59,434 bases of DNA from a virus (lineage: Duplodnaviria; Caudoviricetes), in IMG/VR virus record IMGVR_UViG_3300017645_000001, positions 1-59,434 of that record, one strand, 5' to 3'. Numbering within the stretch: the first letter of the stretch is position 1; each line of letters opens with the position of its first letter. Below are positions 7,294-58,306 of the stretch, in pieces. Both the position numbers and the translations under genes were made by a program. The notes under the pieces were generated by a model. It did not search any database. It was not told the DNA's origin and saw only the letters and a list, made by a program, of their open reading frames with translations.

Positions 7294-8448
7294 TCAGTAG
7301 GACAGGATGACAAGGCCATCGCCGCCCTTGCCGCCAGCATTGGTGAAACCGGACTGCGAACCGCCGCCGGCACCGCCGGCACCGGGACCGCCGGCAATGC
7401 CCGTGCCATAGTTGCCCTGGCCGCCGCCACCGAGATACGGCGCATCACCGCCATTGCCACCGGCTGTAAACGCAATTGCAGGCGTCGCCGGGACAGCAAC
7501 CTTGCCGGCGCTCCCGGTCAGATTGAGATCGCCGCCGCTACCGACACCGGGAACGCCAGAACCGATGCCGAGCCCGCCCGCCGTACCGCCGAGACCTTTC
7601 TTGCCACCCGTCGCCGCGCAGTAAGCGCCGAACGACGACGATCCGCCGTCGACACCGTTGGCGCCGTTGCCCGCGCCGCCAGCACCGCCGGCGCCGATGG
7701 TCACGGAAATATTCGCGCCGGGTGTCACGGTGCAGAGCTTTTGCGAATAGCCGCCGCTATCACCGCCGCCGCCACCGCAGGGGCCAGACGAATGCGAGGC
7801 CCCGCCGCCACCCGCCGCGCCCCACACTTGCGCATAAACTTGGGTAACACTGGCCGGCACGGTCCAACTTTGCGAAGAACTGATGACGATAAGATTCCGA
7901 CCGAACATCGGCGGCAACGCCGGCGCCGTCGCAAAGGTGCAGAGCAACTGAAACTTGACGCCATCAAACATCATCAGCGCAATCGCGCTGGCCGGTAGAT
8001 CACCGGTCACGAGATCGGCGCCATCGATCTTTTTCAGCGCCTTGGTCGAGAGCGCATTCGCCTTGACGGTCGTCGCGCCGGTGACGTTGTTCGCGACTTT
8101 CACGGCCAGCATCAATCCGCCGCTGCCATAGTTCGTCACCGGCGGATCGAACGCCGCGACGATGGCATTCGCAGCCCCGCTGCTATCCTCAGCGTAGCGG
8201 GTCGAAACCGCCTGCATTGCGCGCCACAGCATGTCATCGCCGTTGTCGAGCGTGATGCCGGAATTGGCGAATGCCGTGCGTAGTTGCGCGAGCACGTCAT
8301 TAAGGAAGTCCGCCGGCAGAATTGTCCCGTCCCTCAGCGCAGGGTTGCTGCAATCACGAAACCAGGTTGGGTCCGCACCGCGCGAAATTGTGCGGGTAGG
8401 ACGAGTGACGACGGCATTAGTGGATGCCGGGCCAAGAACGTCGGTCAT
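7294..8448 (-). CDS. Tail fibre protein with Gly-rich C-terminal domain
   Basis: WTVPASVTQVY...GGGGG...GGDGLVILSY; follows baseplate genes. Confidence 0.8.
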   Translation of the reverse strand: MTDVLGPASTNAVVTRPTRTISRGADPTWFRDCSNPALRDGTILPADFLNDVLAQLRTAFANSGITLDNGDDMLWRAMQAVSTRYAEDSSGAANAIVAAFDPPVTNYGSGGLMLAVKVANNVTGATTVKANALSTKALKKIDGADLVTGDLPASAIALMMFDGVKFQLLCTFATAPALPPMFGRNLIVISSSQSWTVPASVTQVYAQVWGAAGGGGASHSSGPCGGGGGDSGGYSQKLCTVTPGANISVTIGAGGAGGAGNGANGVDGGSSSFGAYCAATGGKKGLGGTAGGLGIGSGVPGVGSGGDLNLTGSAGKVAVPATPAIAFTAGGNGGDAPYLGGGGQGNYGTGIAGGPGAGGAGGGSQSGFTNAGGKGGDGLVILSY

Positions 8449-10250: not shown

Positions 10251-10798
10251 TTCGCGGATGCCTGTTTCCAGATGTCGCTAAACTGCTCGCGATGGATGAT
10301 CTGATTGTCACGGCCGTAAACCTGAACGGACAGGTCAATCCGATTCACGGCCGCCTGCATCGTTGCCTCAACGTCGATACGCGCGGCCACCCCCTGCCGG
10401 ATCAGCGGCGCTAGCGCCTCCTGAGCGGCAACCTCGACAAACCGGCGGACTTCCTCGTTCAGCGGCGCGCGCTCATATATCCACAACAGCGAGCCAAGCT
10501 CGTCCTCGCCAAGATCAGCGCGAACGTCGATATCGTCGCCCCACCATCCCCGTGGATCATCGTCGCCGATGAACTTACGGTGCGGGTGTTGGTCAGGACA
10601 GCGCTTGTCCGTGAACAGCGCCACAATGATTGCGGTGTGCAGCGCTGCCTTGGCGCGCAGCCCGCCACGGTTTAACGGCTCGTCGTCGCCGGCCATTGCC
10701 CAATCGGCGCAGCCAGTCTGAGAATCCCAAACACTGTCCCATAGCAATTGAGGCTGGGGCCGGTCAGCTTCTCCAATCCGAACCCGAAGCGACGTCAT
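10247..10798 (-). CDS. Phage GP46 family baseplate protein
   Basis: LHTAIIVALFTD...RGWWGD...GSLLW...EALAPL. Confidence 0.9.
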   Translation of the reverse strand: MTSLRVRIGEADRPQPQLLWDSVWDSQTGCADWAMAGDDEPLNRGGLRAKAALHTAIIVALFTDKRCPDQHPHRKFIGDDDPRGWWGDDIDVRADLGEDELGSLLWIYERAPLNEEVRRFVEVAAQEALAPLIRQGVAARIDVEATMQAAVNRIDLSVQVYGRDNQIIHREQFSDIWKQASAK

Positions 10799-11349
10799 CA
10801 GTCGATCCTCGCCCAAAGCACCTCGGACGGCCCGCCTTCGGTCGAAACCTTGTACGGCGCATCTTCCGTCGGCGACTGCACCGCAAGGTCGATGCGGTGC
10901 TCTCGAACGCGGAGGTAACGCTTATTCTTGAGGCCGATCACGACCTCCGTGTCGGCCTCGATCGTCACCTTAGACGCATTGTGGATCACCACCGGCTTGC
11001 CGCCAGCATCGATCTCTGTTTCGTCCTCGATAACCTTGATGATCTTTCCGTATGCGTCGTAGATCGCTGCCCCGCCTTGAGGCAGGTTTTTCGGACGGTG
11101 CTTTTCATGGCCGCCGTCGAGATATGCCAGCCGGTCGGATCGGCCGCCGAGCGCCAACCCTAACCCATCGCTTCCTGCCGGCGGGTTCGACGTGAAACCG
11201 TGTGGCAGTACCCGAAGAACGCGCTTCGGCTTCTCGCCGTAGAGGCCGGCGAGGTCGAGGATCTGCTGCGTCCCGCTGTCGTCAACGTTAAGAACCTGAA
11301 ACCGCCTGATCATCGAGCGGATCGCGTCGTCGTGCTCCCAATAGCTCAT
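10798..11349 (-). CDS. Baseplate spike/assembly protein (Mu gp45-like)
   Basis: PHGFTSNPPAG...LGG...RPKNLPQGGAAIYD. Confidence 0.85.
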   Translation of the reverse strand: MSYWEHDDAIRSMIRRFQVLNVDDSGTQQILDLAGLYGEKPKRVLRVLPHGFTSNPPAGSDGLGLALGGRSDRLAYLDGGHEKHRPKNLPQGGAAIYDAYGKIIKVIEDETEIDAGGKPVVIHNASKVTIEADTEVVIGLKNKRYLRVREHRIDLAVQSPTEDAPYKVSTEGGPSEVLWARID

Positions 11350-12492: not shown

Positions 12493-13706
12493 CAGCGCGC
12501 CAGCGCCTCAAAGTCTGTCGGCATGAACGAGGGGTGCGCGACGCGGTTGCGCTCCGCCAGTTCGGTTGAGCGGGTAGGATCGCGATAGAGGCGATGCGCC
12601 CACCACAACGAAGGCATCCTGCGGTTTGCCTCAACCGGAATAACGGGCGCGCGATCAAGGATTGCCCGCGATAGGTAATCGATAGTCGCTCCGCTGAGAT
12701 CGACCACCGCACGGTAGATTTCCGGCTCGTAAGCAGAGAGCGCGTAGAGCACCGCGTCGAAGTATTCAGCCGCATCCGCCCTCAACGCGATAGCGGTTTG
12801 CCGATCCGAGATCACCGCGCTGGCAATACCCTCCGCATAAGCTGCCAAGGCGGCCATACGCATCATCAAGGCGGTCGCGAACTCGTTGTCCGCGGCAGCC
12901 TTCGCAGCCGGAGTCCTGAACGGACCCGCAGGCGGATCAAGCTGATCGCCGAGGATCGGCTCGAAAGCCCGAACCGCAGCGCCGCCCTCCATGCCGTCGG
13001 CAATGCCGCGCGCGATGGTCACGAGGTCGGCGAACGCTTCGCCGTTTACGCCGCTGGTCTGGCTCGCCGCTTCTGGCGCAGCATCGTAGAGCGTCTTGAT
13101 CGCATTGCGCTGCACGGCGCTCGACGCCGGGTCGATATTCCCCGACATGCGAACCACGTCGAGCGTGGCAGCCCCGGTCTGCAATCCCTCGGTCGCCGCC
13201 TCGATCACAAAGTCCGGCTGACCGAGCGCATAGATCGCGGTTTCGGCAAAGACGGAGACTGCACTCGCCAGCGCATCGGCGCGGGCAAAAACCATGTTTG
13301 CGAGCGAGGCAAACGAGACGAGCGAGGTCGCCGCGCCCTCGCGCACGAAACGCAGGGTGTATGCAATTCGTCCGGCCCTATCCTTCTCACGGCTGCGCCG
13401 GAAATTCAGACAGCGGACGGTAATCGGGCCATGCGTCGGCAGCACGAGAATGCCAGCGCCGCGCTGTGCGCAGACGGAAGTAAGCGCCGTCGCTTGAACG
13501 TCAACGGTGTCCGACGCCAGATAAGCCGTGACGTCGAAGTCGCGCTTTGCCTCACCCAGGTCCTCGTTGAACGGATCGTCCCGGCCGGGGAATTCATGGC
13601 TGACGATCCGGCGGCCGCCCTCTTCCTCGTCCCGCTCAGTCTGGAACGGGACGCCCTTGAACGACGCCGGAAAGAGAGTCCGCAGCCAGTCGCGCCCTAT
13701 GGCCAT
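12492..13706 (-). CDS. DNA circularization protein (Mu gpN-like)
   Basis: ASFKGVPF...HEFPGRD...EDLG; A.RLY.D..R..EL..RN...HP.F. Confidence 0.92.
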   Translation of the reverse strand: MAIGRDWLRTLFPASFKGVPFQTERDEEEGGRRIVSHEFPGRDDPFNEDLGEAKRDFDVTAYLASDTVDVQATALTSVCAQRGAGILVLPTHGPITVRCLNFRRSREKDRAGRIAYTLRFVREGAATSLVSFASLANMVFARADALASAVSVFAETAIYALGQPDFVIEAATEGLQTGAATLDVVRMSGNIDPASSAVQRNAIKTLYDAAPEAASQTSGVNGEAFADLVTIARGIADGMEGGAAVRAFEPILGDQLDPPAGPFRTPAAKAAADNEFATALMMRMAALAAYAEGIASAVISDRQTAIALRADAAEYFDAVLYALSAYEPEIYRAVVDLSGATIDYLSRAILDRAPVIPVEANRRMPSLWWAHRLYRDPTRSTELAERNRVAHPSFMPTDFEALAR

Positions 13707-27237: not shown

Positions 27238-29229
27238 TTACCTGTTCAGGTCTTCAGCAAACCGCGAGAAGCGGTCGTTGCCTTTTGGCTTTGCCGACGA
27301 CGGGGGCGCTGAGTTGTCAGCCTCGACAGCCGCTCGCCTACGGCGCGCGCCCAGCTTGATATGCTGCACGTTCAGCATGTAGCCCGCGGCGGATGCCATC
27401 GCCTCGGCGTCGAGGAAATGGTTGTCGCGGGCCTTCTCAATCCAGACCGGCTTTCCGCCCGGTCCGCGCACCATCGCCTCGGCCACGATCTGTCGGCAAT
27501 AATCCTCGGTTACGTCCTCGGGCAGATGCCACGCGCCCGGTTGATCGAGCGGCCACGCCAGGCGTTCATGCACCCACGATTTCCAATGGTTCGGATCGAG
27601 CCGGATAAGGTCGAGCCCATACTTCGACTGCTTGCCCTGCTGCGTGACCTCGATCTTTCGCCGCACCAGCGGCGTCACCATCGCGTGGGAACTGCCCTTT
27701 GTCGCAAAAACGAAGCTGCGGAAGCGCCGCGCGAACTCGTAGACGCGATTAACTGGCACATCGAGCTTCTTGCCAGGCCGAAATCCGCTATCGACGAACG
27801 CCAGCTTGATCAACAGGCCATCGATCGGCGCGGTCAGCAGTTCTGCAAGATCATCCCAGACCTGCGGCTCCGCAGTGTTGCCCCACAACTCACCAAAACC
27901 GACCAGCCACGACGTAGCGCGGGCGCCCCATGCCCTCACCACCCACGGGATACGGTTCTTTTGAACGTCTCCACCGAAGGTCAGAAACAGCGCCTCATCC
28001 GGCACACTGCCGCAGGAATACGGCTCAGCGCGGGCCTTGATCGCCTCCCACTCCGGCAGATCACCACCATCGTCGGTGAATACCTCACCGAATCCAGCGT
28101 TGATAGCGACTTGGATCTTCTCAGCTTCGCCAGACTTGAGCGCCGTCAGGTATTCTTCAGCCCGCTCGCCAAGTGTTACGAAGGGCGAAGCAAGGCCGCT
28201 GCACCATCGCGAGAGCGTCGCGCTATCAGGCGGATCACCAACGACGTTGCCGTCTTCGTCGATCGTCTGACCTGGCGCCACATAGCGGCCAGCGGCATTC
28301 ATGCCGGCCTTGTCTTCCTCCCGAATGACGCAACCGTTCTTCGGGCACTCGATCCAGGCATCACGGCGCGCTTGAGCAGGCGTCGCTGCCTTCGGCCACC
28401 GCAGCAGCTTGAACCGCGGCACAAACCACTCACCGCAGTGAGGGCAGCGCCACACCCAATGATATCGCGTCCCCTCCTGCCAAAGCTTCCAGATGGGCGA
28501 GAAGTCCTCACCGGGGTCTTCGACCATCTTCCAGAACTCTAGGCCGTTCGCCGCGTCCCGCTCGATTTCGACCAGCCCGCGCGACGGCGTCGACGTAACC
28601 CCGACGACAAAGTCCGCGTAGGTGTAGCCGCGGGCCTCGACGAGCCCGAGCGGGTCGCCCTGCCCCTGCACATCGGTGCGCATCGCATCGTATTCGTCGA
28701 TTAGCGCGATTGCAGCCGGGTCGGACTTCAAAGCCGTCTGCGAACCCGCGTGCGCCAGACGCACCCGGACACCCGCAACGCGCTTGAGCGTCCGTTTCTG
28801 CCGCTTCCCCTCGACGCCGCCGATCATCTTCGTGTGCAGCGACGATTGCCGGAAAAGTTCGTTCAGCCGCGGCTCGAACTGGTCGGTATTGAACTCCTTC
28901 GACGGCCCGACATACAGGATTGGGGCTGGCCGGTTATCGAGACGCTCCCCGATGATGTCGAGAAAGGTCTCGGTTTTGCCCATCTGGGCACCCTCGACCT
29001 GAACAACCCGGCGATATCGCTGATCGCCAAAAGAGCGCCCAAACGGCACGTTGTAGGCCGCAAGATACGGGTCGCGCCGACCGGGCCTACCGGTTTCCGG
29101 TCCGTAAACCCTCTGCCGGCCCCACTCGTCAGGCTCCTGTCTCCTCGCTCTCCACAAGCACTTCGCGGCCAGCCCGTAAATCGCGCTCCGCTTGCTGGAA
29201 GCGGTCGCGACAGCGATCAATTGCCCCAT
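27238..29229 (-). CDS. Terminase large subunit (GpA family); true start may be slightly downstream
   Basis: GAQMGKTE Walker A, IDEYD Walker B, TSTP, CPHCGE, NHFLDAE. Confidence 0.95.
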   Translation of the reverse strand: MGQLIAVATASSKRSAIYGLAAKCLWRARRQEPDEWGRQRVYGPETGRPGRRDPYLAAYNVPFGRSFGDQRYRRVVQVEGAQMGKTETFLDIIGERLDNRPAPILYVGPSKEFNTDQFEPRLNELFRQSSLHTKMIGGVEGKRQKRTLKRVAGVRVRLAHAGSQTALKSDPAAIALIDEYDAMRTDVQGQGDPLGLVEARGYTYADFVVGVTSTPSRGLVEIERDAANGLEFWKMVEDPGEDFSPIWKLWQEGTRYHWVWRCPHCGEWFVPRFKLLRWPKAATPAQARRDAWIECPKNGCVIREEDKAGMNAAGRYVAPGQTIDEDGNVVGDPPDSATLSRWCSGLASPFVTLGERAEEYLTALKSGEAEKIQVAINAGFGEVFTDDGGDLPEWEAIKARAEPYSCGSVPDEALFLTFGGDVQKNRIPWVVRAWGARATSWLVGFGELWGNTAEPQVWDDLAELLTAPIDGLLIKLAFVDSGFRPGKKLDVPVNRVYEFARRFRSFVFATKGSSHAMVTPLVRRKIEVTQQGKQSKYGLDLIRLDPNHWKSWVHERLAWPLDQPGAWHLPEDVTEDYCRQIVAEAMVRGPGGKPVWIEKARDNHFLDAEAMASAAGYMLNVQHIKLGARRRRAAVEADNSAPPSSAKPKGNDRFSRFAEDLNR

Positions 29230-29710
29230 TCAGAGCACCTTCAATCGCCAACCGGGCGTCCAGATCGCGCGTCGCAGCAGCAGGGATGCCAGCAAGCTCA
29301 GAGCGAAACGTGCCAAGAATGTCGGCAACCACAGCAAAAACGTCATCGGTTTCGATAAGCTGGCCGTCTTCGCGCGCCATCCTCTGCTCAATTGCCCGCC
29401 GCTTCGTGGCCGCCAGACGAGCCTGCGGTGTGTCGGCCGCCGCCTTCTGCTCAAGATCGTCCCGATAGGCCAAATATCCGTCCAGAACGTCGCCGATCCG
29501 GTAGGCATTCGAGCCCGATTTCTTGATCCAGCCGGCCTTTGTAAGCTGCCGGACCCGCTCGCCACTGACTTTGATGATCGATCCAGCGTCGTCGGTGGAG
29601 ACGACCAGAGCCCGCCAATCTGTGACTTTCGCATGTCCCGATTTGGCGGGCCTTTTCGATTTCGATCCAGACTTTCGTCCCGATGGGCGTTTCGGCGGGC
29701 TCAATGGCAA
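29129..29710 (-). CDS. Terminase small subunit (Nu1-like)
   Basis: Winged HTH VSGERVRQLTKAG then coiled coil, EDGQLI; overlaps terL start. Confidence 0.8.
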   Translation of the reverse strand: MPLSPPKRPSGRKSGSKSKRPAKSGHAKVTDWRALVVSTDDAGSIIKVSGERVRQLTKAGWIKKSGSNAYRIGDVLDGYLAYRDDLEQKAAADTPQARLAATKRRAIEQRMAREDGQLIETDDVFAVVADILGTFRSELAGIPAAATRDLDARLAIEGALNGAIDRCRDRFQQAERDLRAGREVLVESEETGA

Positions 29711-29793: not shown

Positions 29794-29810
29794 AAACACG
29801 GTCCCTTTTC
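29794..29810 (+). promoter_or_regulatory. Protospacer-like target of the spacer at 37537-37567, in the terS-upstream (cos/late promoter) region
   Basis: AAACACGGTCCCTTTTC is the exact reverse complement of 37550-37566. Confidence 0.8.
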
Positions 29811-29860: not shown

Positions 29861-30421
29861 TCAGAGCTTGCGGAGCACCTCGTGCTCCAGGCGTGCAGGC
29901 AGGTCTCTCTCCACTGTGGCGTGGAAGACCTTGAGGCTATCGCCACTCACCAACTCTTCGGCGATGAAGAGACCGCTCTTGACGGTCTTGAGCGGGTAGC
30001 GGGCCTTGCCTGCCCTGACGACTACGGCGCCGTTCATGCGCAGAGCGACACGGTTCGGGAAGTGTCCGCCCTTGGTGAAGGTCTTGGGGTAGAGCCTGCG
30101 CTTGCTCCAAGGGGCTGCGGTTACGCCTGCCCTTGTTTCTCGGGCAGAGAAGAACTTCAAGCGGATATCCCCGCCCTTGGCCTTGATCGTGTAGCCGGTG
30201 CTGCCGTGGAGCGCGGCGCGTGTGCTGGTGACCGCCTTGTTGATGGTCTTGCGCTTGAGCCCTGTCTGCTTGGGCAGGACTGCCCGCATGGCGGTGCGGG
30301 CCTTGTCCCCGGTGTGGTTGATTGCCCGGCGCATGGCGTCGGGCTGATCCTTTGCCAGTGCCGCGAAGCGGTTGCCGAGGTCTGCTAGAGCCTTGGCGTC
30401 AACGCGGACGTTGCTGAACAT
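29861..30421 (-). CDS. Minor tail / gpZ-like protein
   Basis: AMRRAINHTGDKART...QTGLK...RLEHEV. Confidence 0.7.
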   Translation of the reverse strand: MFSNVRVDAKALADLGNRFAALAKDQPDAMRRAINHTGDKARTAMRAVLPKQTGLKRKTINKAVTSTRAALHGSTGYTIKAKGGDIRLKFFSARETRAGVTAAPWSKRRLYPKTFTKGGHFPNRVALRMNGAVVVRAGKARYPLKTVKSGLFIAEELVSGDSLKVFHATVERDLPARLEHEVLRKL

Positions 30422-30600
30422 CAGCGCCTCGCAAGGTTGGCTTTGGCAGTAGCGATCTTGGACCGAAAGTCGCGGGCATCGTCGCGGATGGTGGCCGCGA
30501 TGTCGCGGACGCTGGCGCCGACGGTCTTGAGGTCGCCGCGGGCCACGGCTTTGGCAGCGGCCAGCATGTGCTGGCCGCGTTCGTTGCAGCGACAGCCCAT
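30421..30600 (-). CDS. Small hypothetical protein (59 aa; absent from ORF track)
   Basis: MGCRCNERGQHMLAAAKAVARGD...; stop overlaps the next ATG. Confidence 0.5.
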   Translation of the reverse strand: MGCRCNERGQHMLAAAKAVARGDLKTVGASVRDIAATIRDDARDFRSKIATAKANLARR

Positions 30601-30869
30601 AACGCTTTACCGTGCCGCTGCGCCCAATCTCACAGGAAGCACCTTTACCGGCCAAGGTGGCAGATAGTACATGCCGCGCCCGAGCCAAGAAAAGCCAAGA
30701 CGGAGCGAGATGAACCGTGGCGGCCACGTCTGATTGTCCGCCTTACCGTCTGCGTTTACGGGAATCCACTTCCACCCAATGAACGGGAGAAAACTGCCGA
30801 ACAGCGGATAACCGCCCTGACCACCAAGGCTCAAGATAAATTCGCCCGTATACTCGCAACGCCAAATCT

Positions 30870-35187: not shown

Positions 35188-36294
35188 CTAAATCCGCATC
35201 GGCATCAGCACGTAGAGCGCGCCGTTGCCGTCTTTGGATTTGATGATTGTCGGTGAGCCGGCCTGATCGAGGTCCATTACAACCGTGTCGCCCTCGATCT
35301 GGGCGACGATGTCGAGCAGATATCGGGCGTTGAAACCGATCTCCAACGGTTCAGCGTCATAGCCGGCCTCGACCTCTTCCGACGCACTGCCGCTGTCCGG
35401 GTTTGTTACCGATAGATCGAGATTGCCTTTGGACAGCGTTAGCTTGGTTGCCTTACCCTTCTCGCTCGACACCGTTGCGACGCGATCAATGGCGGCGTGA
35501 AACTCGGCGCGGTCGATCTCCAAGGTCTTGTCGTTGCCTTGCGGTATGACCCGACGATAATCGGGAAACGTGCCGTCGATAAGCTTCGAGGTTAGAACGG
35601 CATCCCCACAAGTTACCCTGATCTTGCTGTCGGATAGTTCGACAGTGACGGCCTCAGCACCGTCCAAGAGCCTCTGGATTTCCCCGACCGTCTTGCGCGG
35701 AATAATCACCCCGGACATGTCTGCGGCGCCGGCGGGAAGATCAAGATCAACAAGCGCCAGTCTATGGCCGTCCGTCGCCACGCCGCGCAGTTTACCGTTC
35801 TCGACGTGCAGATAGATACCGTTGAGGTAGTAGCGGGTTTCCTCTGTTGAGATAGCGAACTCAGTCTTTTCAATCAGCCGCCGCAGGTCGCCGGCCGCGA
35901 TGTCGAACCGGGTCGGCAGCTCTCCCGGTGCCATGTCGGGAAAATCGCTAACTGGTAGAACCGGCAGTTTGAACCGTGACCGACCGCAAGCCACGGTCAA
36001 AGTCGCGTCATCGGCCTTCAACGAGACTTCCGATCCCTCCGGCAGCTTTCGAGCGATATCGTAGAGCGTCGTGGCCGGCACGGTGATGGCGCTCTTACTG
36101 GCTGACGCCACCTCCACCGAAGCAACGACCTCGATATCAAGGTCCGTGGCGGTGATTGCCAACGTCTTGCTCGAGTTGCGTAACAGGACGTTAGCCAGGA
36201 TCGGGATTGTGCTTCTCCGAGGCACGACGCGATGCACACGGCCAAGGCAACCGATCAACGCATCACGGCTCAAAACGACATTAAAACCCGTCAC
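35188..36294 (-). CDS. dnaN: DNA polymerase III beta sliding clamp (phage copy)
   Basis: RRSTIPILANV, ATDLD, STEETRYYLNG, ATDGHRL, FPDY.RVIP, VLMPMR; GTG start overlapping upstream stop. Confidence 0.95.
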   Translation of the reverse strand: MTGFNVVLSRDALIGCLGRVHRVVPRRSTIPILANVLLRNSSKTLAITATDLDIEVVASVEVASASKSAITVPATTLYDIARKLPEGSEVSLKADDATLTVACGRSRFKLPVLPVSDFPDMAPGELPTRFDIAAGDLRRLIEKTEFAISTEETRYYLNGIYLHVENGKLRGVATDGHRLALVDLDLPAGAADMSGVIIPRKTVGEIQRLLDGAEAVTVELSDSKIRVTCGDAVLTSKLIDGTFPDYRRVIPQGNDKTLEIDRAEFHAAIDRVATVSSEKGKATKLTLSKGNLDLSVTNPDSGSASEEVEAGYDAEPLEIGFNARYLLDIVAQIEGDTVVMDLDQAGSPTIIKSKDGNGALYVLMPMRI

Positions 36295-36809: not shown

Positions 36810-37070
36810 CTAGGCCGCTCTTTTCTGATGGCTGAGCGCCTTCTTGCCTGCTCCTGCCTGAATGAGCTTGGCCTCAACCTCGACAAGGCGACCCTGGTTA
36901 AGACGGGATTCGAGGCGAACCTTGACGGCGGTATTCACCCGGCCAAATGCTTCGGAAGCGAGCTTGCCCTGTTTCAAATCCGCCTTGCGCTGTAGCGCCT
37001 CTGCCGCCAGCGCCGACGCGCCTTCGATGACCGCATCAAGCGCAGCGAGTTCTTTACTGATAGTGCTCAT
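36810..37070 (-). CDS. Hypothetical protein
   Basis: 86-aa helical ORF tightly coupled in the operon. Confidence 0.6.
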   Translation of the reverse strand: MSTISKELAALDAVIEGASALAAEALQRKADLKQGKLASEAFGRVNTAVKVRLESRLNQGRLVEVEAKLIQAGAGKKALSHQKRAA

Positions 37071-37075
37071 TGTGA

Positions 37076-38482
37076 TTATGCCTTCTTCAACGCCCGTTTT
37101 GCTTTGCGAACTGCCTTGCCAGCGGCAACGAGCTTTCCGCCGATGGCAATATTCGGTTGATCATCCTCAATGATGTCACACCGAATCCCTGCTTCCTCGG
37201 CCTTGTATCTGAGCATCTGAACCGCGAGGCCCGGTGCTTGGCCGAGAATATGTCTGTTGAGAGATGAAACCGTCTTGACGTTTGCGCCCCAGACCTTCGC
37301 GTCTCCACGGGGCGTAGCTGTAAGCGCCCTTACGTCGCTGGCGATTACCGAGATATCGCAAGCGGAACGCACGATGCTTGTGGACCATGCATGCAGCGCG
37401 TGCTTGCGCCGTCGCGCCTCCATCGCTCGAAGCCGAGCAACACGTCTTTTCTCACGACGCCAACGCCATGAGAACTTGCGGTACCGACGATCCCGTTCTG
37501 ACTGTACTCGATCTGCCAAATCGCCGGTGACGACACCCTGGATCGGAGTGAAAAGGGACCGTGTTTCCCTGTCGTCACCACCCAAATCGCCGGTGACGAC
37601 ACGGGATGTCGTCTTATGTTGTTGAGCTTGGGTGGTAATTTGCTCTTTCGAGCGGGCGAGACATTCGCCCTTCGCGCGCTCAACACGCGCAAACTCGTCA
37701 ATTAGATCAAACTTGATCTCTACTTTATCTGCACCCGCCGTCATGCGGGGCTTCATCTTCACAACGATTGAAACCCACCACGCGCCGTCACGACGCATGA
37801 TGACGCAATTCCGAATTGATTCAGGATCGGCGGGGAACTTGCCACGAGCCTTTATAAAGCCGGGGACGCCTTTGACATACATTCGCCAGATGTTTGACGA
37901 TTTACAATTTGCGGGTGTCTCGACCCGACATCGCCGTCTTCGGACTAAAACTGTTCTTTCATTCACCCCACAATTCGAGGTGGTCTCGGCCTGATCAGAA
38001 GATAACCCCCTCGAATTGCGACGTGATTTGCCGTTACGGCAGGCCGTGAACCGGCCCTTTTCGGATTTCTCCGAAAACTCTGAAGCGGAATACAGACGCC
38101 ATCCTCTTCCATGTTCTGGAAAAGGAATGCTGTTTCCGTCCTTTGTCCTCTTGTATCGCGGATAACCTGACGCCGCGCCCGCGCCAGACTTCGCGCGCTT
38201 GAAGAACGCTTTGAACGCATCGTCCAGTTTGAAGATAACTTGCGCCGGAGTACTTGCATTCAACTCCTGCCACTCCGGGCACTCGCGGCGCAAATGCTTG
38301 ATCTCTTTGCAAAGATCGTACGCGGATAGCGTCTTCCCTTCGCGGCGATAAACGTCCTCACGACGCTGCAAAGCAGCATTATACAACTCGGCGCACATCA
38401 CGGCATGACGATCTAGCGCGCGTTCCTGCTCGCGATTTTGGTAAAGTTTGAACGTGTAGCGCCGAGTCACGGGGTCGGACAT
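37076..38482 (-). CDS. tnpB: Nuclease-dead TnpB/Cas12-like RNA-guided protein with two in-frame insertions
   Basis: RRYTFKLY...LYNAAL..R...LDDAFKAFF.R...GYPRYK, WWVSI, LNR.IL...MLRYKAEEAG. RuvC-I and RuvC-II acidic residues replaced (VEIKFDL, VIASDV); Zn finger and RuvC-III absent. Confidence 0.85.
   Translation of the reverse strand: MSDPVTRRYTFKLYQNREQERALDRHAVMCAELYNAALQRREDVYRREGKTLSAYDLCKEIKHLRRECPEWQELNASTPAQVIFKLDDAFKAFFKRAKSGAGAASGYPRYKRTKDGNSIPFPEHGRGWRLYSASEFSEKSEKGRFTACRNGKSRRNSRGLSSDQAETTSNCGVNERTVLVRRRRCRVETPANCKSSNIWRMYVKGVPGFIKARGKFPADPESIRNCVIMRRDGAWWVSIVVKMKPRMTAGADKVEIKFDLIDEFARVERAKGECLARSKEQITTQAQQHKTTSRVVTGDLGGDDRETRSLFTPIQGVVTGDLADRVQSERDRRYRKFSWRWRREKRRVARLRAMEARRRKHALHAWSTSIVRSACDISVIASDVRALTATPRGDAKVWGANVKTVSSLNRHILGQAPGLAVQMLRYKAEEAGIRCDIIEDDQPNIAIGGKLVAAGKAVRKAKRALKKA
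37516..37602 (-). CRISPR. Intragenic mini-array B: 35-nt repeat, 31-nt spacer, 21-nt partial repeat
   Basis: GTGTCGTCACCGGCGATTTGGGTGGTGACGACAGG (37568-37602, hairpin GTCGTCACC/GGTGACGAC); spacer GAAACACGGTCCCTTTTCACTCCGATCCAGG; exact 21-nt second copy at 37516-37536. Confidence 0.75.
37603..37672 (-). ncRNA. Scaffold/anti-repeat preceding mini-array B
   Basis: Hairpins GGGCGA-ATGTC-TCGCCC and GCTC-GAAA-GAGC; TTACCACCCAA (37628-37638) can pair with repeat TTGGGTGGTGA. Confidence 0.5.
37904..37991 (-). CRISPR. Intragenic mini-array A: 36-nt repeat, 30-nt spacer, degenerate partial repeat
   Basis: GGCCGAGACCACCTCGAATTGTGGGGTGAATGAAAG (37956-37991, ends ATGAAAG); spacer AACAGTTTTAGTCCGAAGACGGCGATGTCG; second copy GGTCGAGACACCCGCAAATTGT, 17/22 identical. 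Confidence 0.6.
37992..38080 (-). ncRNA. Scaffold/anti-repeat preceding mini-array A
   Basis: GCAATTCGAGGGGGTT (38004-38019) pairs 15/16 (with G-U) with repeat GACCACCTCGAATTGT; hairpins at about 38029-38041 and 38058-38077. Confidence 0.5.
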
Positions 38483-39025: not shown

Positions 39026-39625
39026 CTATGCCTGCTTCACCTTGTCTCGATGCAACCAACGGACTTCCGCTCTGCCGTCGTATCCTTTGAGAAATACGAG
39101 CCAGCAGAAGTCCTGCTTCCCGCCTGACGGCTCTTTACCTTTGGCCTCGTATTCCAAGACCAGCGGTCCCGGCGGCATTGAGGGCCGTGGCGTCAAATAC
39201 CAAAGCCGGTAGAGCGGAAGGTCTTTGATCCAAGCGCCGGCCGCGTTAAGACGACGGGTCGGCATAATCATCGCCACTTTGCGCGAGGCACGACGATGCG
39301 CTTGCCGCGCGAACTCTTCGCTCAGATCAAATGGCTGATTCATGACGATGTTGTCGGCTTCGATGCCGGACGTCAGAAAATCGCAGATTGCGTAGTAATC
39401 ACAGCCGCGATCAACGATGTCGCAGCCGCGCGCCACGTAGCCCGCCTCGCGAGCAGCTTCGACAATTCGACCAGACCCGCAGCATGGATCGAGAATATCG
39501 CCATCAAACGGCTCTTCCTCGAACAACCGACGTGAACACCAGCGGTTTTCGACGTACCATTCGCGCTCTTCCCTAGCCCAGGAATGAGCGGCAACAGCTT
39601 TCGCTACGGTGGCAGTCTCGATCAC
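39026..39625 (-). CDS. DNA methyltransferase-like protein
   Basis: ILDPCCGSG SAM motif; motif IV reads NQPF. Confidence 0.75.
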   Translation of the reverse strand: MIETATVAKAVAAHSWAREEREWYVENRWCSRRLFEEEPFDGDILDPCCGSGRIVEAAREAGYVARGCDIVDRGCDYYAICDFLTSGIEADNIVMNQPFDLSEEFARQAHRRASRKVAMIMPTRRLNAAGAWIKDLPLYRLWYLTPRPSMPPGPLVLEYEAKGKEPSGGKQDFCWLVFLKGYDGRAEVRWLHRDKVKQA

Positions 39626-39785
39626 GCCGCAACCTCACGGCGTTCGGCGCGGACAATCTCGCTGCAAACCTCGCAAAGAACCTCTCGCGCAATGATTTCT
39701 GGCGATGTGTGCTCACGCTTCGCTGCGTGCTGGTACGCGGCCCAGACATCGGCGGGAAGGCTGATGGCGATAGGAACGAGCCGCG

Positions 39786-40304
39786 TCACGCCACCCTCCG
39801 CGCGGTCCGGGCCGCGTCTCGAAGCGCTCGGCGCTCAGACTTGGTACCGACGCCGATGCTCAATTGGGTGTGCGCGGGGCAATAGCTTGAGCCGGGGCGC
39901 TTGATATGGCCGCAGAACGTGTGCTGCCCGGTTTTGACGTCCCGCTCATCATCGGGCCAACGGCAATGAAAGGGGTTCAATTCGATAAGCGGAATCCGCT
40001 GAGAAACGACGTCAGCGGCGCGTGGCGTGAACGGGGCAGCCCCGATCTTCGGCACAATCACAACCTTTGGGCCGATTGGTGCTTTGACCGAAGTTGTGGG
40101 CTTTGGTGGTGGGGGCTTCCGCTCGATCGGCTTGCCGGTCTTGGTGTATCGCAGTTTCCGATCGTTCAGCGCGATCCCCCGCCGATGGCAGAGGCCGATA
40201 ATCGCGTTGCGCGTGACGCCGAGACGCCTGCCCATCTCAGCAGCACTCAAATGCTCAGCCGCGAGACTGCGCACCAACTCCACTTGGTCGGGGTGCCACG
40301 CCAT
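39786..40304 (-). CDS. gcrA: GcrA family cell-cycle regulator (phage copy)
   Basis: W...VE.....S...G.RLGVTRNAIIGL.HR; CRWP...FCG.....SSYCPAH. Confidence 0.9.
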   Translation of the reverse strand: MAWHPDQVELVRSLAAEHLSAAEMGRRLGVTRNAIIGLCHRRGIALNDRKLRYTKTGKPIERKPPPPKPTTSVKAPIGPKVVIVPKIGAAPFTPRAADVVSQRIPLIELNPFHCRWPDDERDVKTGQHTFCGHIKRPGSSYCPAHTQLSIGVGTKSERRALRDAARTARRVA

Positions 40305-41166: not shown

Positions 41167-41391
41167 TCATGCCGCGCTCCGAGATATGCAGATATCCACG
41201 AAGCGGCTTGCTGAGACCCGGCCACGCGTCACCCGCTCAATGTCGCGCGCCAGCGCTACGGACGGGTTTCTCTCCCCATTCAGCACTCGCGTCAGAGTGC
41301 TCGGAGCCCTGCCCATCCGAGCAGCCAGCGACGACAGGCTTTCGCCTGTTTCGCGGAGGTAGATCGTGAGTTCATTGTCCAAATCAGCCAT
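41167..41391 (-). CDS. Cro-like HTH repressor
   Basis: SLSSLAARMGRAPSTLTRVLNGERNPS; divergent from cI. Confidence 0.88.
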   Translation of the reverse strand: MADLDNELTIYLRETGESLSSLAARMGRAPSTLTRVLNGERNPSVALARDIERVTRGRVSASRFVDICISRSAA

Positions 41392-41402
41392 AAGACGAGA
41401 TT

Positions 41403-41476
41403 TTGCCTATTTGGCAAGATTTAGCAAGGACAATTTTTGCCTATTTGGCGGTGGAGCAAATTTGCCAAACAGGCAA
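41403..41476. promoter_or_regulatory. OR-like operator triplet (TTGCC-N5-GGCAA)
   Basis: TTGCCTATTTGGCAA 41403-17, TTGCCTATTTGGCGG 41437-51, TTGCCAAACAGGCAA 41462-76, between cro and cI. Confidence 0.85.
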
Positions 41477-41485
41477 TCTGCCAAG

Positions 41486-42157
41486 ATGGCCGGAAACCGT
41501 ATAGAAGAACTGCGAAAAGCCCAGGGAATGACGCTAGAGGAACTCGCGGACGCCGTTGGCCTCTCGGTTCCCTACGTTCAGCGGCTCGAAAAGGGGCAGC
41601 GGAACCTATCAATCAAGCATTTGGACAGTTTCGCGGCGGCCCTAAAGGTCAGAGCCCGTGAGATCGTGACCGATGAGAATGATGGCCATATCGATTCAAT
41701 TCAGGTCGCGGCTGACCTCGGCAGCCCCCATATGCGGTCAGAAGATGTCGCAGCATCAATAGATGCCGGACCGAAGAAAACGGTCCGTGTAAAGGGCTAC
41801 GTCGGGGCCGGCGGAGAAGCACATTTCTATAGGCTATCCGACGAAGCGTTCGAGGAAGTCCTTGCCCCCGAAGGCTCGACCGATTGCACGGTCGCTGTGG
41901 AAATTCGCGGCACAAGCTGGGGTCCGCAAATGAACTCCTGGCTCGTCTTCTACGACGACGTGCGTTCACCAATCACAGAGGACCTATTGGGGAAGCCTTG
42001 TGTCGTCGGCCTAGCCGATGACCGTATTCTGATCAAAGTAATCCAACGCGATCGCAATGGCGATTATCGCCTCGTGTCGAACAACCCATCAGAACCAGAT
42101 ATCGAAGATGCGCAGATTGAGTGGGCAGCGAAGGTCACATCGATGAAGCCACGCTAG
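41486..42157 (+). CDS. CI-like repressor (XRE HTH plus S24 peptidase domain)
   Basis: IEELRKAQGMTLEELADAVGLS...LEKGQR; VGAG cleavage motif; GTS...LIK. Confidence 0.92.
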   Translation: MAGNRIEELRKAQGMTLEELADAVGLSVPYVQRLEKGQRNLSIKHLDSFAAALKVRAREIVTDENDGHIDSIQVAADLGSPHMRSEDVAASIDAGPKKTVRVKGYVGAGGEAHFYRLSDEAFEEVLAPEGSTDCTVAVEIRGTSWGPQMNSWLVFYDDVRSPITEDLLGKPCVVGLADDRILIKVIQRDRNGDYRLVSNNPSEPDIEDAQIEWAAKVTSMKPR

Positions 42158-56978: not shown

Positions 56979-57353
56979 ATGAGCCAGCGCGCCGCAGACC
57001 AGCAACCCACTCAACCCCTTCTCACTGCCGGGGAAGTCGCCGCGCGCTTGCACATGTCGGACAAGCAGTTGCGCGGCCATATCCGGGCTGGCAACATACC
57101 ATTTATAAACATCGGTCTGGGCGCTCGTCCGAGTTATCGGTTCCGTGCCTCCGATATTGTGGCGTTTGAATTGGCGCGAGCAACGATATGCACAAGGCCG
57201 TGCGAGGCATCTACCGCCGCAAAGGCGAAGACACATGGTCGTACGACCTCGTCGTACGAGGTCATCGATTTTGCGGCTCAACGGAGTGCAAGGAAAGGCG
57301 CGCCGCTGAAAGATGGATCACGACGTTCCGGGCCGAAAAGCGAGCCGCGATAG
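56979..57353 (+). CDS. Excisionase-like HTH protein
   Basis: LLTAGEVAARL.MS...G.IP...RP.YRF; overlaps integrase start. Confidence 0.8.
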   Translation: MSQRAADQQPTQPLLTAGEVAARLHMSDKQLRGHIRAGNIPFINIGLGARPSYRFRASDIVAFELARATICTRPCEASTAAKAKTHGRTTSSYEVIDFAAQRSARKGAPLKDGSRRSGPKSEPR

Positions 57354-58306
57354 CTCAGCTCGATGGCCGAGAACCGATGAACTTCGGCGCGGCGTCTACG
57401 CGATGGTGGAACGAGCGCGGACAGCACAGGAAGGATGCCCGGTCGCTTGAGGGCTATCTGGCGTTACTGCAAAGCCGGATCGGGATGAAAACAGCCCTCG
57501 CCTCAATCGATGACAATACCGTCGCGAAGCTTGTCGCGCTCCGCCGAGCCGACGGTGTCTCGCCTTCGACAGTCAACCGATCGATGACCGAGCCGCTGCG
57601 TGCAATCATCACTCGCGCGCGGCTGTGGAAACAGCCAGTTCAAACTATCGACTGGCGCGCACACAAGCTCAAGGAACCGGAGGGGATCGTCAGGGAGGCA
57701 AGCGCGGAGGAAGAGGCAAAAGCCTTTGCTGCGCTGCGGACGGACCTACGCGCGATCACCATGTTCTTGCTGGTGACAGGCTGGCGGCGAGCCGAGGCTT
57801 GCCGCTTGAAATGGTCCGATATCAACTTTGAGACGGGATTTGCCACGGTCGAAGGCAAGGGAGGGATTATCCATCGCCGCCCCCTCCCCGCAGCGGCGAT
57901 CGCCATCCTGCGCGGCGAGCAGGATCGTCATGCGGAAACTGTGTTTACCTATATGGTGAGACACCCCAACGGCGGCACGCGCGGGTCCAGACAGCCGATC
58001 CTACCGGGGACGCTAACCACAGCCTGGTGCCGCATGCGAGACGCCGCCGGGCTGAACGGACTACGCCTGCATGACCTGCGTCACACCACGGCCACCCGCG
58101 TCCTGCGCAAGACGGGGAACCTTGTCGCCGTCCAGAAGGCGCTGGGGCACAGCCGGGTATCCACGACCCAGAGGTACGCTCACATGCTGGCGGAGGATGT
58201 ACGGGCGGCCTTGGATGCGGCTGCTCCCGTGGCTACGCAGGTCGCCGCTCAGAGTCCCGTTGAAATTCCCGAGGCAAAAGCCTCAGCGGCCGGTAAATAC
58301 AAGTAG
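57188..58306 (+). CDS. int: Tyrosine recombinase (phage integrase)
   Basis: TGWRRAE (R), K, HDLRH, LGHS, RYAH catalytic set. Confidence 0.96.
   Translation: MHKAVRGIYRRKGEDTWSYDLVVRGHRFCGSTECKERRAAERWITTFRAEKRAAIAQLDGREPMNFGAASTRWWNERGQHRKDARSLEGYLALLQSRIGMKTALASIDDNTVAKLVALRRADGVSPSTVNRSMTEPLRAIITRARLWKQPVQTIDWRAHKLKEPEGIVREASAEEEAKAFAALRTDLRAITMFLLVTGWRRAEACRLKWSDINFETGFATVEGKGGIIHRRPLPAAAIAILRGEQDRHAETVFTYMVRHPNGGTRGSRQPILPGTLTTAWCRMRDAAGLNGLRLHDLRHTTATRVLRKTGNLVAVQKALGHSRVSTTQRYAHMLAEDVRAALDAAAPVATQVAAQSPVEIPEAKASAAGKYK

Follow-up and report, generated by a model that had tools for sequence, protein, structure and literature searches.

The effector gene and its neighbourhood

The stretch of DNA analysed here (the window) is a viral record of 59,434 bp, which is the whole genome available, and carries on its minus strand a gene for a TnpB/Cas12f-like protein, referred to below as the effector (Table 1). 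The gene is packed in an operon of phage genes, the adjacent ORFs ending 3 bp upstream (position 38486) and starting 5 bp downstream (position 37070), as an earlier reading of the DNA made from its letters alone (the sequence-only reading) had placed them. That reading had also noted the lack of tnpA, which holds for the whole record, since neither a Y1 transposase (TnpA) nor a TNB domain was found anywhere in it. Rfam at gathering thresholds detected two tRNAs only in the window, and a scan of the effector region for promoters and terminators found none of the former and, on the opposite strand, 2 sites resembling the latter, versus 2.6 expected. With no transposase, phage genes this close on either side and nothing but tRNAs from Rfam, the locus lacks the context of an IS element, namely TnpA and a 3' omega-RNA.

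Table 1. Positions of the features discussed, numbered from the first letter of the window.
Feature	Position	Strand	Remarks
Small terminase gene	29129-29710	-	putative target just upstream
Putative cassette 2 target	29794..29810	+	in 150-bp gap between Neck1/tail-completion gene and small terminase gene
Neck1/tail-completion gene	29861-30727	-	borders putative target gap
86-aa gene	36810..37070	-	adjoins effector downstream; conserved; possible partner protein
Effector gene	37076..38482	-	uninterrupted ORF, 468 aa, TnpB/Cas12f-like, predicted nuclease-dead
Cassette 1 scaffold	37991..38077	-	codes aa 136-164; hairpins 38058-38077, 38042-38056, 38029-38041; anti-repeat ~38005-38020
Cassette 1 full repeat	37955..37990	-	36 nt; 19/36 positions same in register as cassette 2 repeat
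Cassette 1 spacer	37925..37954	-	30 nt; target not found
Cassette 1 degenerate terminal partial repeat	37889..37924	-	runs into conserved 'W.MYVKGVPG' codons
Cassette 2 scaffold	37603..37692	-	codes aa 264-294; hairpins 37671-37692, 37654-37670, 37642-37653; anti-repeat 37628-37638
Cassette 2 full repeat	37567..37602	-	36 nt, 10-bp palindromic stem
Cassette 2 spacer	37537..37566	-	30 nt; first 17 nt identical to 29794-29810 (+)
Cassette 2 terminal partial repeat	37501..37536	-	first 21 nt identical to full repeat; remainder codes conserved 'DRVQSERDRR'

Pfam HTH_OrfB_IS605 matches residues 1-50 of the effector (E 1.2e-9) and NCBIfam guided_TnpB scores 108.9 bits (cut-off 100). The scores of Pfam OrfB_IS605 (22.5 bits, cut-off 30.5) and of the TNB zinc-finger domain PF07282 (12 bits, cut-off 26.3) fall under their thresholds. 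According to Pfam, NCBIfam and Foldseek, the TnpB N-terminal HTH/WED/REC region and the RuvC core fold are present. The closest folds to the AF2 model, which has a mean pLDDT of 79.8, are ISDra2 TnpB 8exa (8exa_A, E 1.7e-14, Foldseek), 8h1j and dCas12f 9n9c. The NCBIfam type V models remained far under cut-off (c2c8, 31.4 versus 350 bits; Cas12f2, 11 versus 450), the PADLOC profiles of Cas12f, Cas12u2 and Cas12u4 gave partial matches only, and no named Cas12 subtype was assigned.

The sequence-only reading had held that the acidic residues of RuvC-I and RuvC-II are both replaced. This stands for RuvC-II, where 25 of 25 rows of the alignment have no acidic residue (I, A or S at this position), but not for RuvC-I: the effector retains the Asp, D259 within 'FDL', and the same column contains D in 19 rows, N in 4 and G in 2. 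The RuvC-III and zinc-finger region, which had been said to be missing, is indeed missing, as the protein ends about 35 aa beyond 'YKAEEAGI' and the TNB score is far under cut-off. The effector thus does not possess the complete RuvC D-E-D triad and TNB zinc finger of a TnpB, and presents the inactivated and truncated RuvC domain, in a TnpB homologue, that characterises TldR.

Homologues of the 86-aa protein are encoded immediately downstream of the effector in 24 of 59 family loci (tblastn with queries from the window and from locus L004, a relative). Prediction of a complex between the effector and the 86-aa protein gave a score of 0.60, versus 0.00 for the best control, which is weak support, and the 86-aa protein is a possible partner of the effector.

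Two cassettes within the reading frame and their conservation

Hairpins, an anti-repeat, a full repeat, a spacer and a partial repeat had been claimed to follow each other twice in the ORF, in mRNA sense, and the repeat search, folding and covariation agree with this layout. An exact 21-nt direct repeat is present at 37516-37536 and 37582-37602, 66 nt apart, in two copies in the window and no more. Cassette 1 has the same layout as cassette 2 with a diverged repeat, and a long anti-repeat:repeat stem is predicted in it. Both cassettes fold much more stably than shuffled sequences (z values of -3.95 and -3.80, each matched or surpassed by 0/200 shuffles). The peptides encoded by the repeats are hydrophilic and predicted to be disordered. 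Structure prediction had been proposed by the sequence-only reading as a way to place the inserts; in the AF2 model both correspond to regions of pLDDT <50 (aa 148-194 and 278-315) within a TnpB fold that is otherwise confident. Two contigs of the RNA library X16 match the gene: one of 151 nt is identical to 37637-37787, and another is 87% identical over 37919-38069. As RNA-library contigs they carry no evidence on transcription, ends or processing, and segments lacking coverage in a run are uninformative.

Relatives were collected from phage and metagenome contigs, the metagenome part consisting of the best 80 of 218 matches. Canonical TnpBs, recognised by a match that stops near residue 432-442 (L018, L019 and otherwise mostly L072-L100), are excluded from the family counts, and the lists of arrays and cassettes were assembled by hand. 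In 14 hand-picked cassettes 94% of the cells pair, versus 73% in shuffles (0/500 as high) and 36-53% with slid partners, and compensatory changes were found at 13 of the 16 scaffold pairs (0/500 shuffles as good). The anti-repeat:repeat helix (helix 3) is 88.5% paired and six of its seven pairs have changed on both sides, so that the anti-repeat both pairs and covaries with the repeat, as expected of a tracrRNA-dependent guide.

A search of 328,655 nt with a covariance model resulted in 44 cassettes, all 44 in gene sense, of which 30 are outside the training rows; about 30 of the 44 are intragenic, at the same two sites, and 13 are downstream, in non-coding DNA. The two cassettes of the window, whose own sequences are training rows, were matched at 37956-38067 (cassette 1, 78.4 bits) and 37568-37680 (cassette 2, 93.5 bits). 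The model had zero matches in four canonical TnpB loci and in a clade of relatives with stand-alone arrays. L004 has, downstream in non-coding DNA, a near-identical copy of the scaffold with a two-repeat array; the copies agree over about 90 nt and differ by 2 nt at the junction. The scaffold is kept even in loci with a single repeat (L024, L026 and L037). Conservation of the inserts at the protein rather than the RNA level had been named beforehand as an outcome that would count against guide cassettes; the base pairs covary within the coding sequence. Judged from these alignments, the cassettes are RNA modules.

Arrays, reading frame and spacer matches

The arrays of the relatives have up to 7 repeats within the ORF and up to 16 in intergenic DNA, and ordinary intergenic arrays, which the sequence-only reading had not foreseen, exist among them, downstream of the gene. 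An effector-linked array with conserved repeats and variable spacers, as in type V CRISPR systems, is thus found, here within the ORF. Three loci with flanks 92-96% identical (L024, L043 and L044) have 1, 2 and 5 repeats, respectively, and share no spacers. In variant contigs 90-95% identical to the window, the match breaks off at 37538, 37568 and 37926, which are borders between repeat and spacer. When canonical TnpBs are used as the root, a quick tree places the in-ORF state as a basal grade and the stand-alone-array clade as derived. As for adaptation genes, a search of 5 viral records for cas1 (PF01867) was negative in all of them; three of these records are at least 90% complete. A tblastn search of GenBank phages found no family member, with N-terminal TnpB matches only, in three Thermus phages.

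Every one of the 46 repeat periods within ORFs is divisible by 3, versus 28 of 91 in intergenic arrays; as both intergenic arrays of the window's repeat type also have the 66-nt period, divisibility by 3 may be intrinsic to that type, and the frame argument therefore rests on the 60- versus 61-nt arrays, the 72/75-nt arrays and the absence of stops. The 46 distinct in-ORF spacers contain 0 in-frame stops in 466 codons, versus 10 in 464 and 9 in 451 codons in the other two frames (19 in total; P ~6e-5), and the gene is uninterrupted at every locus with an in-ORF array. Forty of the 50 full-length family genes are intact; the 10 interrupted loci have no in-ORF arrays, their breaks being located elsewhere. 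The sequence-only reading had expected that an alignment of homologs at the DNA level would display conserved repeats and anti-repeats, varying spacers and a maintained frame, and all three were observed. It had also allowed that the gene might be a decaying IS remnant; the proportion of intact genes and the confident fold argue against this.

The spacer of cassette 2 has an exact match of 17 nt in the window that begins at its first base. The 17-mer occurs twice in the window, with 0.01 expected, and the longest other matches between the gene and the genome are of 13-14 nt. This putative target is located where the packaging and structural (late) genes begin, and a sigma-70 and terminator scan of the gap gave 0 sites and no recognisable promoter. 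For the spacer of cassette 1, the best match in the window has 11 mismatches, the same as for shuffles. IMG/VR, a collection from which the window's own record is possibly absent, contained 0 exact matches to the initial 18 nt of spacer 1 or the initial 17 nt of spacer 2.

Among the relatives, a spacer of L004 is identical over 30/30 nt to an HTH_36 replication-type gene of its own contig, in a different frame; such a perfect self-match is compatible only with a non-cutting effector. A spacer of L023 agrees at 28/29 nt (E 1.8e-6) with a capsid-like gene, which is located on a different contig of the same MAG. Targets were found for 1/2 spacers in the window, 1/5 in L004, 0/7 in L017 and 0/4 in L013, and the long intergenic arrays of relatives match their own genomes with 0/25, 0/18, 1/9 and 0/6 spacers. 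The 5' flanks of the three protospacers (window, L004 and L023) have no evident common motif, and no TAM is thus defined. At L021, a 27-nt exact match was seen elsewhere on the contig, 12 nt of which correspond to the repeat.

Proposed function, alternatives and known systems

The central claim of the sequence-only reading, which places in-frame guide cassettes within a phage ORF for a nuclease-dead TnpB/Cas12-like protein, is supported by covariation, non-coding copies, spacer turnover, the frame and stop signal, matches to phage DNA and the position of the inserts in segments of low pLDDT. The product is probably a DNA binder or repressor guided by RNA, and its mRNA would double as guide precursor. 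The TnpB-derived protein would have lost DNA cleavage and retained its RNA- and DNA-binding core. Two coding stretches would double as cassettes, each with a tracrRNA/omega-RNA-like scaffold, a 36-nt CRISPR-like repeat, a 30-nt spacer and a truncated terminal repeat, and these would be transcribed within the gene's own mRNA and translated as disordered surface loops. We infer that the protein binds the cassette RNA, which may then be trimmed to guides, the messenger being their precursor, and that the ribonucleoprotein would bind complementary double-stranded phage DNA without cutting it, transcription being blocked as in CRISPR interference. One guide appears to be directed to the gap immediately preceding the small terminase gene, and the purpose could be to time or silence the late genes of the phage itself, or to exclude related phages.

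A further proposal, to which we give somewhat less than an even chance, is that the effector mRNA is at once pre-crRNA and tracr-like RNA, and that the family could record the transition from an embedded omega-RNA-like scaffold to a free CRISPR array without Cas1/Cas2, since the in-ORF state is basal on the quick tree. If the mRNA is a pre-crRNA, each guide made would cost one messenger, resulting in built-in autoregulation, and spacers would be filtered for 30-nt length, frame and absence of stops.

The guide modules could be real and serve in conflict, silencing superinfecting relatives or host genes, with self-matches as by-products of sequence common to related phages. The long intergenic arrays almost never match their own genome, the majority of in-ORF spacers have no self-match either, and the L023 target is on another contig with one base different, all of which fit such a role; the full-length identity of the L004 spacer to its own contig and the location of the window match at a regulatory-looking site, at the head of the late genes, do not, and we consider this explanation rather unlikely. 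The two roles are not exclusive, as an immunity-type repressor does both. It is improbable that the structured RNA acts only in cis, with the protein controlling the translation or stability of its own mRNA and the spacers not being guides: the retention of the scaffold at the three single-repeat loci and the reported processing by TnpB of its own mRNA (PMC10278001) would agree with this, but the arrays have up to 7 units and undergo turnover between close relatives, matches to phage DNA exist for three spacers, and some cassettes stand alone outside any ORF.

Slightly more improbable again is antisense control, in which the guides pair with RNA and not with DNA. The spacers of the window and L023 are complementary to transcripts of the genes at their targets; however, the L004 spacer is in the sense of its target-gene mRNA and unable to pair with it, and the fold is that of the DNA-targeting TnpB/Cas12f. 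CRISPR-like patterns within genes are usually protein repeats, and the inserts might accordingly be protein repeats, low-complexity linkers or selfish DNA without RNA function, or the gene a decaying IS remnant, to which the hydrophilic, predicted disordered peptides and the 10/50 interrupted loci would correspond. This is the least probable explanation of all, given base-pair covariation within the coding sequence, the same modules in non-coding DNA, 44/44 model matches in gene sense, spacers that copy phage DNA in another frame or strand, interruptions confined to loci without in-ORF arrays and located elsewhere, 40/50 intact genes and a confident fold.

If the effector is an RNA-guided repressor with its mRNA as guide precursor, TldR is one system to compare it with. 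TldRs are TnpB-derived proteins with a degraded RuvC and a C-terminal truncation that removes the zinc finger and RuvC-III; they are often phage-borne, bind DNA under RNA guidance and repress transcription, short guide matches of 9-16 nt being enough, and the clades described are fliC, csrA and oppF (10.1101/2023.11.30.569447, PMC13622181). One guide RNA is described, and the word 'array' occurs 0 times in PMC13622181. The effector is similarly TnpB-derived, RuvC-degraded, C-terminally truncated and phage-borne; unlike TldR as described, it has a scaffold and multi-spacer arrays within the ORF and an anti-repeat, and in its relatives the arrays reach 16 repeats. The guide RNA of TldR adjoins the TldR gene. 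A single guide RNA beside the gene was not found here, the cassettes lying in the ORF and arrays being present in relatives. As to a guide matching a promoter or gene, the 17-nt match lies upstream of terS, where no promoter was recognised.

The arrays and tracrRNAs of Cas12m, Cas12k and dCas12f are separate non-coding loci. With these proteins (8hhl, 7n3o, 9n9c) the effector shares the fold, repeat-spacer arrays and a predicted lack of DNA cleavage, with a tracr-like anti-repeat here, and it differs from them by its guides within the ORF, by type V profiles far under cut-off and by cas1 not being found in the five viral records. Like canonical TnpB, the effector has a guide scaffold overlapping protein-coding sequence and would use its mRNA as guide precursor. 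Canonical TnpB has this overlap at the gene's 3' end, and its one guide is located beyond the element, whereas the cassettes here are internal, at two sites, with exchangeable spacers, and translated, and there is no TnpA and, by prediction, no active nuclease. The effector, like TranC (structure 9jfo), is TnpB-like and stands between the omega-RNA type of guide and the tracrRNA-plus-crRNA type; TranC is nuclease-active, its RNA loci are separate, and we know of no in-ORF array for it. Type V effectors that bind without cutting include exapted dCas12f (PMC13472631), and IS200/IS605 TnpB is reported to process its own mRNA (PMC10278001).

A search of the literature, covering main texts, found no description of guide cassettes inside an effector ORF, and we thus found no earlier account of one DNA serving for both protein and guide in the effector's own gene. 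If confirmed, the same DNA read as a protein and as an exchangeable guide-RNA array would be an extreme case of dual coding, and the effector, scaffold and guides in one gene of ~1.4 kb would form a very compact RNA-guided regulator. The family would represent an additional phage lineage of dead TnpB/Cas12-like proteins using multi-spacer arrays and a link between transposon omega-RNAs and CRISPR arrays. It would raise the questions of how spacers change without Cas1/Cas2 and how translation of the mRNA is balanced against its cutting. For annotation, the locus is a warning that repeat finders drop in-gene arrays; the source annotation gives a product of 268 aa, identical to 57% of the 468-aa ORF and probably its C-terminal part.

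Genomic context and effector protein

By PHROGs, the 59,434-bp viral record is that of a temperate tailed phage with an integrase and a CI-like repressor (coordinates are collected in the table). A long minus-strand operon starts with GcrA-like and DNA methyltransferase genes, passes through the effector gene and leads to genes for a RuvC resolvase, a sliding clamp, a primase and a DnaB helicase. Beyond these come a Neck1/tail-completion gene, the terminase genes terS and terL, and those for portal, protease, major head, sheath and tape measure. The GcrA-like gene, so labelled by eye from its sequence and of unknown function according to PHROGs, lies with the methyltransferase gene just upstream of the effector. 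The effector ORF (468 aa) is uninterrupted, with gaps of 3 bp and 5 bp to the adjoining genes; its GC3 is 0.58, compared with 0.64-0.73 in neighbouring genes. The collection's own gene call (P0001, 268 aa) is 100% identical to this ORF and covers 57% of it. It probably starts at M201, just past cassette 1, and spans approximately 37076-37882. The N-terminal 200 aa appear to have been missed by the gene caller.

In Pfam, the effector matches the TnpB HTH domain (E 1.2e-9), and no TNB zinc finger (PF07282) reaches its cut-off. The NCBIfam model guided_TnpB scores above cut-off, its best stretch spanning model positions 1-184 of 389 only. AlphaFold2, given a 25-row alignment, yields a model with a mean pLDDT of 79.8 in which confidence drops under 50 at aa 148-194, 278-281 and 284-315, and the closest solved structures are ISDra2 TnpB (8exa, E 1.7e-14; 8h1j), ISFba1 TnpB, dCas12f and Cas12f. 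In a profile alignment to RdCas12n, the RuvC-I motif 'GVDLG' aligns with 'LDL' of the family. The sequence-only reading had both the RuvC-I and RuvC-II acids replaced; the RuvC-I aspartate is in fact retained as D259, in a column with D in 19 sequences, N in 4 and G in 2. The rest of that claim stood: I/A/P-type residues occupy the RuvC-II glutamate position in the family, and the protein ends approximately 35 aa past 'YKAEEAGI', ahead of the zinc finger and RuvC-III. Neither a TNB domain nor a Y1 transposase is encoded anywhere in the 59,434-bp record. Because the RuvC-II glutamate is missing and the protein ends before the zinc finger and RuvC-III, we conclude from its sequence that the effector is a nuclease-dead TnpB derivative with a TnpB fold.

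Structured cassettes within the ORF

Both proposed in-ORF cassettes could be located part by part, as hairpins, anti-repeat, full repeat, 30-nt spacer and partial repeat. For cassette 1, which keeps the order of cassette 2 with another sequence, a long anti-repeat:repeat stem is predicted. The two cassettes fold with z of -3.95 and -3.80, and none of 200 shuffles of either folded as well. They encode aa 136-198 and 264-328, and both ranges contain low-confidence loops of the AlphaFold2 model.

Features of the phage and repeats in relatives
Feature	Record	Positions	Strand	Remark
Effector ORF	window	37076..38482	-	
Cassette 1	window	38077 down to 37889	-	
Cassette 2 hairpins	window	37671-37692, 37654-37670, 37642-37653	-	mRNA sense
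Cassette 2 anti-repeat	window	37628-37638	-	11 nt
Cassette 2 repeat	window	37567-37602	-	36 nt, palindromic
Cassette 2 spacer	window	37537-37566	-	30 nt
Cassette 2 terminal repeat	window	37516-37536	-	first 21 nt of full repeat; then conserved 'VQSERDRR' codons
Small downstream gene	window	36810-37070	-	
Small downstream gene	L004	4355-4594		
GcrA-like and methyltransferase genes	window	39026-40304	-	
CI-like repressor	window	41366-42157		PHROGs
Integrase	window	57188-58306		PHROGs
Scattered ~29-nt unit	L006	2218-2942, 4187-5400		
Scattered ~29-nt unit	L007			
Scattered ~29-nt unit	L010			
Scattered ~29-nt unit	L048-L052			upstream regions
Array repeats	G006	10372-11333, 13204-13658, 37561-37658		copies at 89 and 69538

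RNAalifold was run on 14 aligned, hand-picked cassettes. The structure it predicts comprises the middle hairpin, the basal part of the third one and the helix between anti-repeat and repeat, and 13 of the 16 base pairs show changes on both sides. Paired cells amount to 94.0%, compared with 73.4% in shuffles (0/500 as high, a count that is not a probability because the sequences are related) and 36-53% with the partners slid; the slid controls retain the relatedness, yet fall far short of the observed pairing. Searched against the window and 60 loci (328,655 nt; metagenome loci from the best 80 of 218 matches), a covariance model built from these cassettes gave 44 matches with E of at most 0.01, all 44 in gene sense and 30 of them non-training rows. 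Neither the loci of the stand-alone-array clade nor four canonical TnpB loci gave a match. The 42 matches in loci were classed as 27 in-gene, 14 downstream and 1 upstream, one 'downstream' match (L034) lying at a contig end within a cut gene and being really in-gene. A cassette at site 1 occurs in five sources (the window, L027, L068, L021 and L035).

Reading frame, spacer turnover and putative targets

For dual coding, a list compiled by hand from 20 arrays supplied 46 distinct in-ORF spacers. Every one of the 46 periods is divisible by 3 (57 once, 60 four times, 66 in 29 cases, 72 in eight and 75 in four), compared with 28 of the 91 periods of 14 intergenic arrays. The spacers have no stop in the gene frame (0/466 codons) and 10/464 and 9/451 in the other frames (P ~6e-5); intergenic spacers have 65 stops in 3051 codons. 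Since the 66-nt period is also kept outside ORFs (L004, L046), the frame signal is clearest in the 72/75-nt in-ORF arrays, which keep frame as well, and in the short-repeat type, whose periods measure 60 nt in ORFs (4/4) but, between genes, 61 or 62 nt in 12 cases out of 14. Of the full-length family loci, some of them duplicate records, 40 of 50 are without stop or frameshift (metagenomes: best 80 of 218), and the ten interrupted ones (L048-52, L058-60, L065, L066) have no in-ORF arrays, their breaks lying elsewhere. By sequence and comparison, selection keeps the ORF open. Several interrupted genes from soil metagenomes contain a single stop, more than one stop or a frameshift outside the insertion sites; they may reflect decay of the copy or faulty assembly.

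The spacers are exchangeable. Three loci with flanks 92-96% identical (L024, L043, L044) differ at site 2, where they have 1, 2 and 5 repeats; their spacers are not shared, and all keep the frame. A variant of 90-95% identity is present in contigs of a biofilm metagenome (X11). The alignments of these contigs end at 37538, start at 37568 and end at 37926, with unlike letters beyond; these break points are repeat/spacer borders. Aligning homologs at the DNA level, as had been suggested, gave conserved scaffold pairing, varying spacers and a kept frame. In a 151-nt X11 contig (record 6), only 32 nt align to the window, at 37925-37956, with 2 differences from the cassette 1 spacer; this stretch may represent a protospacer from a different genome or belong to a variant array. 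Cas1 was found in none of five viral records.

From its first base on, the cassette 2 spacer is identical over 17 nt to positions 29794-29810 (+), within the 150-bp gap from the Neck1 gene to terS. This 17-mer occurs twice exactly in the window (0.01 expected), other gene-versus-genome matches reaching at most 13-14 nt; by eye, five further bases agree past one mismatch and one 1-nt gap. In L004, a relative on a 45.5-kb phage with terminal repeats, spacer 1 matches 30/30 nt within a 433-aa HTH_36 gene of the same phage. The match is in another reading frame and therefore reflects a nucleotide copy, not a common protein motif. Spacer 1 of L023 matches 28/29 nt (E 1.8e-6) on the opposite strand in a 413-aa ORF, which by eye resembles a major capsid gene of the HK97 type, on a different contig of the same Rhizobium MAG. 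No target was found for window spacer 1 and 4/5 L004 spacers, nor for the spacers of the L017 record (0/7) and L013 fragment (0/4); own-record matches in long-array relatives were 0/25, 0/18, 1/9 and 0/6. The single match, in G008 (the record of L014; spacer 8075-8112 of nine stand-alone-array spacers), pairs the last 22 spacer nt with 36227-36248 of its own phage; the window match covers the first spacer nucleotides.

These matches indicate spacers copied from phage DNA. Guide cassettes in frame within the effector ORF, the central claim of the sequence-only reading, are thus backed by several independent lines (covariation, frame and stop counts, spacer turnover and spacer matches to phage DNA), and we consider the finding real.

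Relatives, possible mode of action and downstream partner

The protein search gave 98 matches, the best 85 (E up to 2.4e-36) without a TNB Pfam domain on record and the weakest 13 all with one. DNA of relatives came from IMG/VR (19 loci), species genomes (4 loci, all alphaproteobacterial MAGs) and metagenomes (77 distinct loci from the best 80 of 218 matches). On this basis, 64 sequences (63 loci and the window) extend to the family C-terminus; the rest, canonical TnpBs, were left out. An alignment of the query with 24 hand-picked matches shows two hypervariable insertion sites with 22-aa peptide repeats, and many members have clean repeat-spacer arrays at these same sites: L042 and L044 (5 repeats each), L061 (7), L013 (4) and L021 (4 and 3). 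L004, whose effector is 46% identical, has a 3-repeat site-2 cassette in its ORF and a second scaffold, with 2 repeats and different spacers, in non-coding DNA past the small downstream gene; the two scaffolds share ~90 equal nt apart from a 2-nt difference at the junction. In a second group without inserts (L002, L003, L008, L011, L012, L014, L020, L022), ordinary arrays lie ~400-500 bp 3' of the gene, with 5 to 16 repeats of ~36 nt. A quick IQ-TREE analysis of 39 rows, with four canonical TnpBs as the root, places the cassette-bearing loci in a basal grade and all eight loci labelled with stand-alone 72-77-nt arrays in one derived 17-row clade (SH-aLRT 95), which tentatively suggests that the in-ORF state is basal and stand-alone arrays derived.

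Other repeats were noted in these relatives. Some without inserts have a ~29-nt unit scattered between genes at irregular 41-155 nt spacings, with no regular array; it shares a hairpin core and 3' motif with array repeats of related phages and also adjoins gene starts and ends. At site 2 of L054 (~570-870), a short-period repeat (units ~22-33 nt, 12-nt core) stands in place of a 66-nt array. In L021, 19 nt of the first site-1 spacer are identical to the site-2 repeat (1727-1758 vs 2226-2309), and 27 nt across the last, truncated site-1 repeat recur 8 kb away on the opposite strand of the contig (G003:C64:674-700). The complete 69.6-kb phage G006, the record of L008, carries 14 repeats in one array and 7 in another, together with a mid-genome repeat pair and single repeats near both ends.

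As to function and RNA processing, we infer that the protein would bind scaffold and repeat in its own transcript, the RNA being trimmed to guides, and that the complex would bind DNA beside a TAM and block RNA polymerase. Guides would then be made at the expense of the mRNA, giving feedback. A promoter scan found no promoter-like site within the effector gene, and the perfect L004 self-match fits only a non-cutting effector. The closest systems in function are the non-cutting Cas12m, Cas12k and dCas12f, and TldRs, dead TnpBs described with a single guide; closest in logic is TnpB, which is reported to turn its own mRNA into omega-RNA. Full-text literature searches and passages of the two TldR papers (10.1101/2023.11.30.569447 and PMC13622181) yielded no description of arrays within an effector ORF. 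To that extent the architecture appears undescribed so far, as had been supposed.

Directly after the effector lies a gene for a conserved helical protein of 75-90 aa (alignment A3), with homologues by tblastn in 24 of 59 family loci having at least 300 nt downstream (metagenome loci from the best 80 of 218). It falls in no family of Pfam, PHROG or PADLOC. A predicted complex of this protein and the effector scored 0.60 versus 0.00 for the best control, with contacts agreeing at least 84% between runs and a partner pLDDT of at least 74. In calibration the mark was reached by 58/80 solved complexes and 2/110 mismatched pairs, a score of 0.60 or less being that of just 7 of those 80 complexes and of both mismatches that passed; the prediction weakly supports binding of the small protein to the effector.
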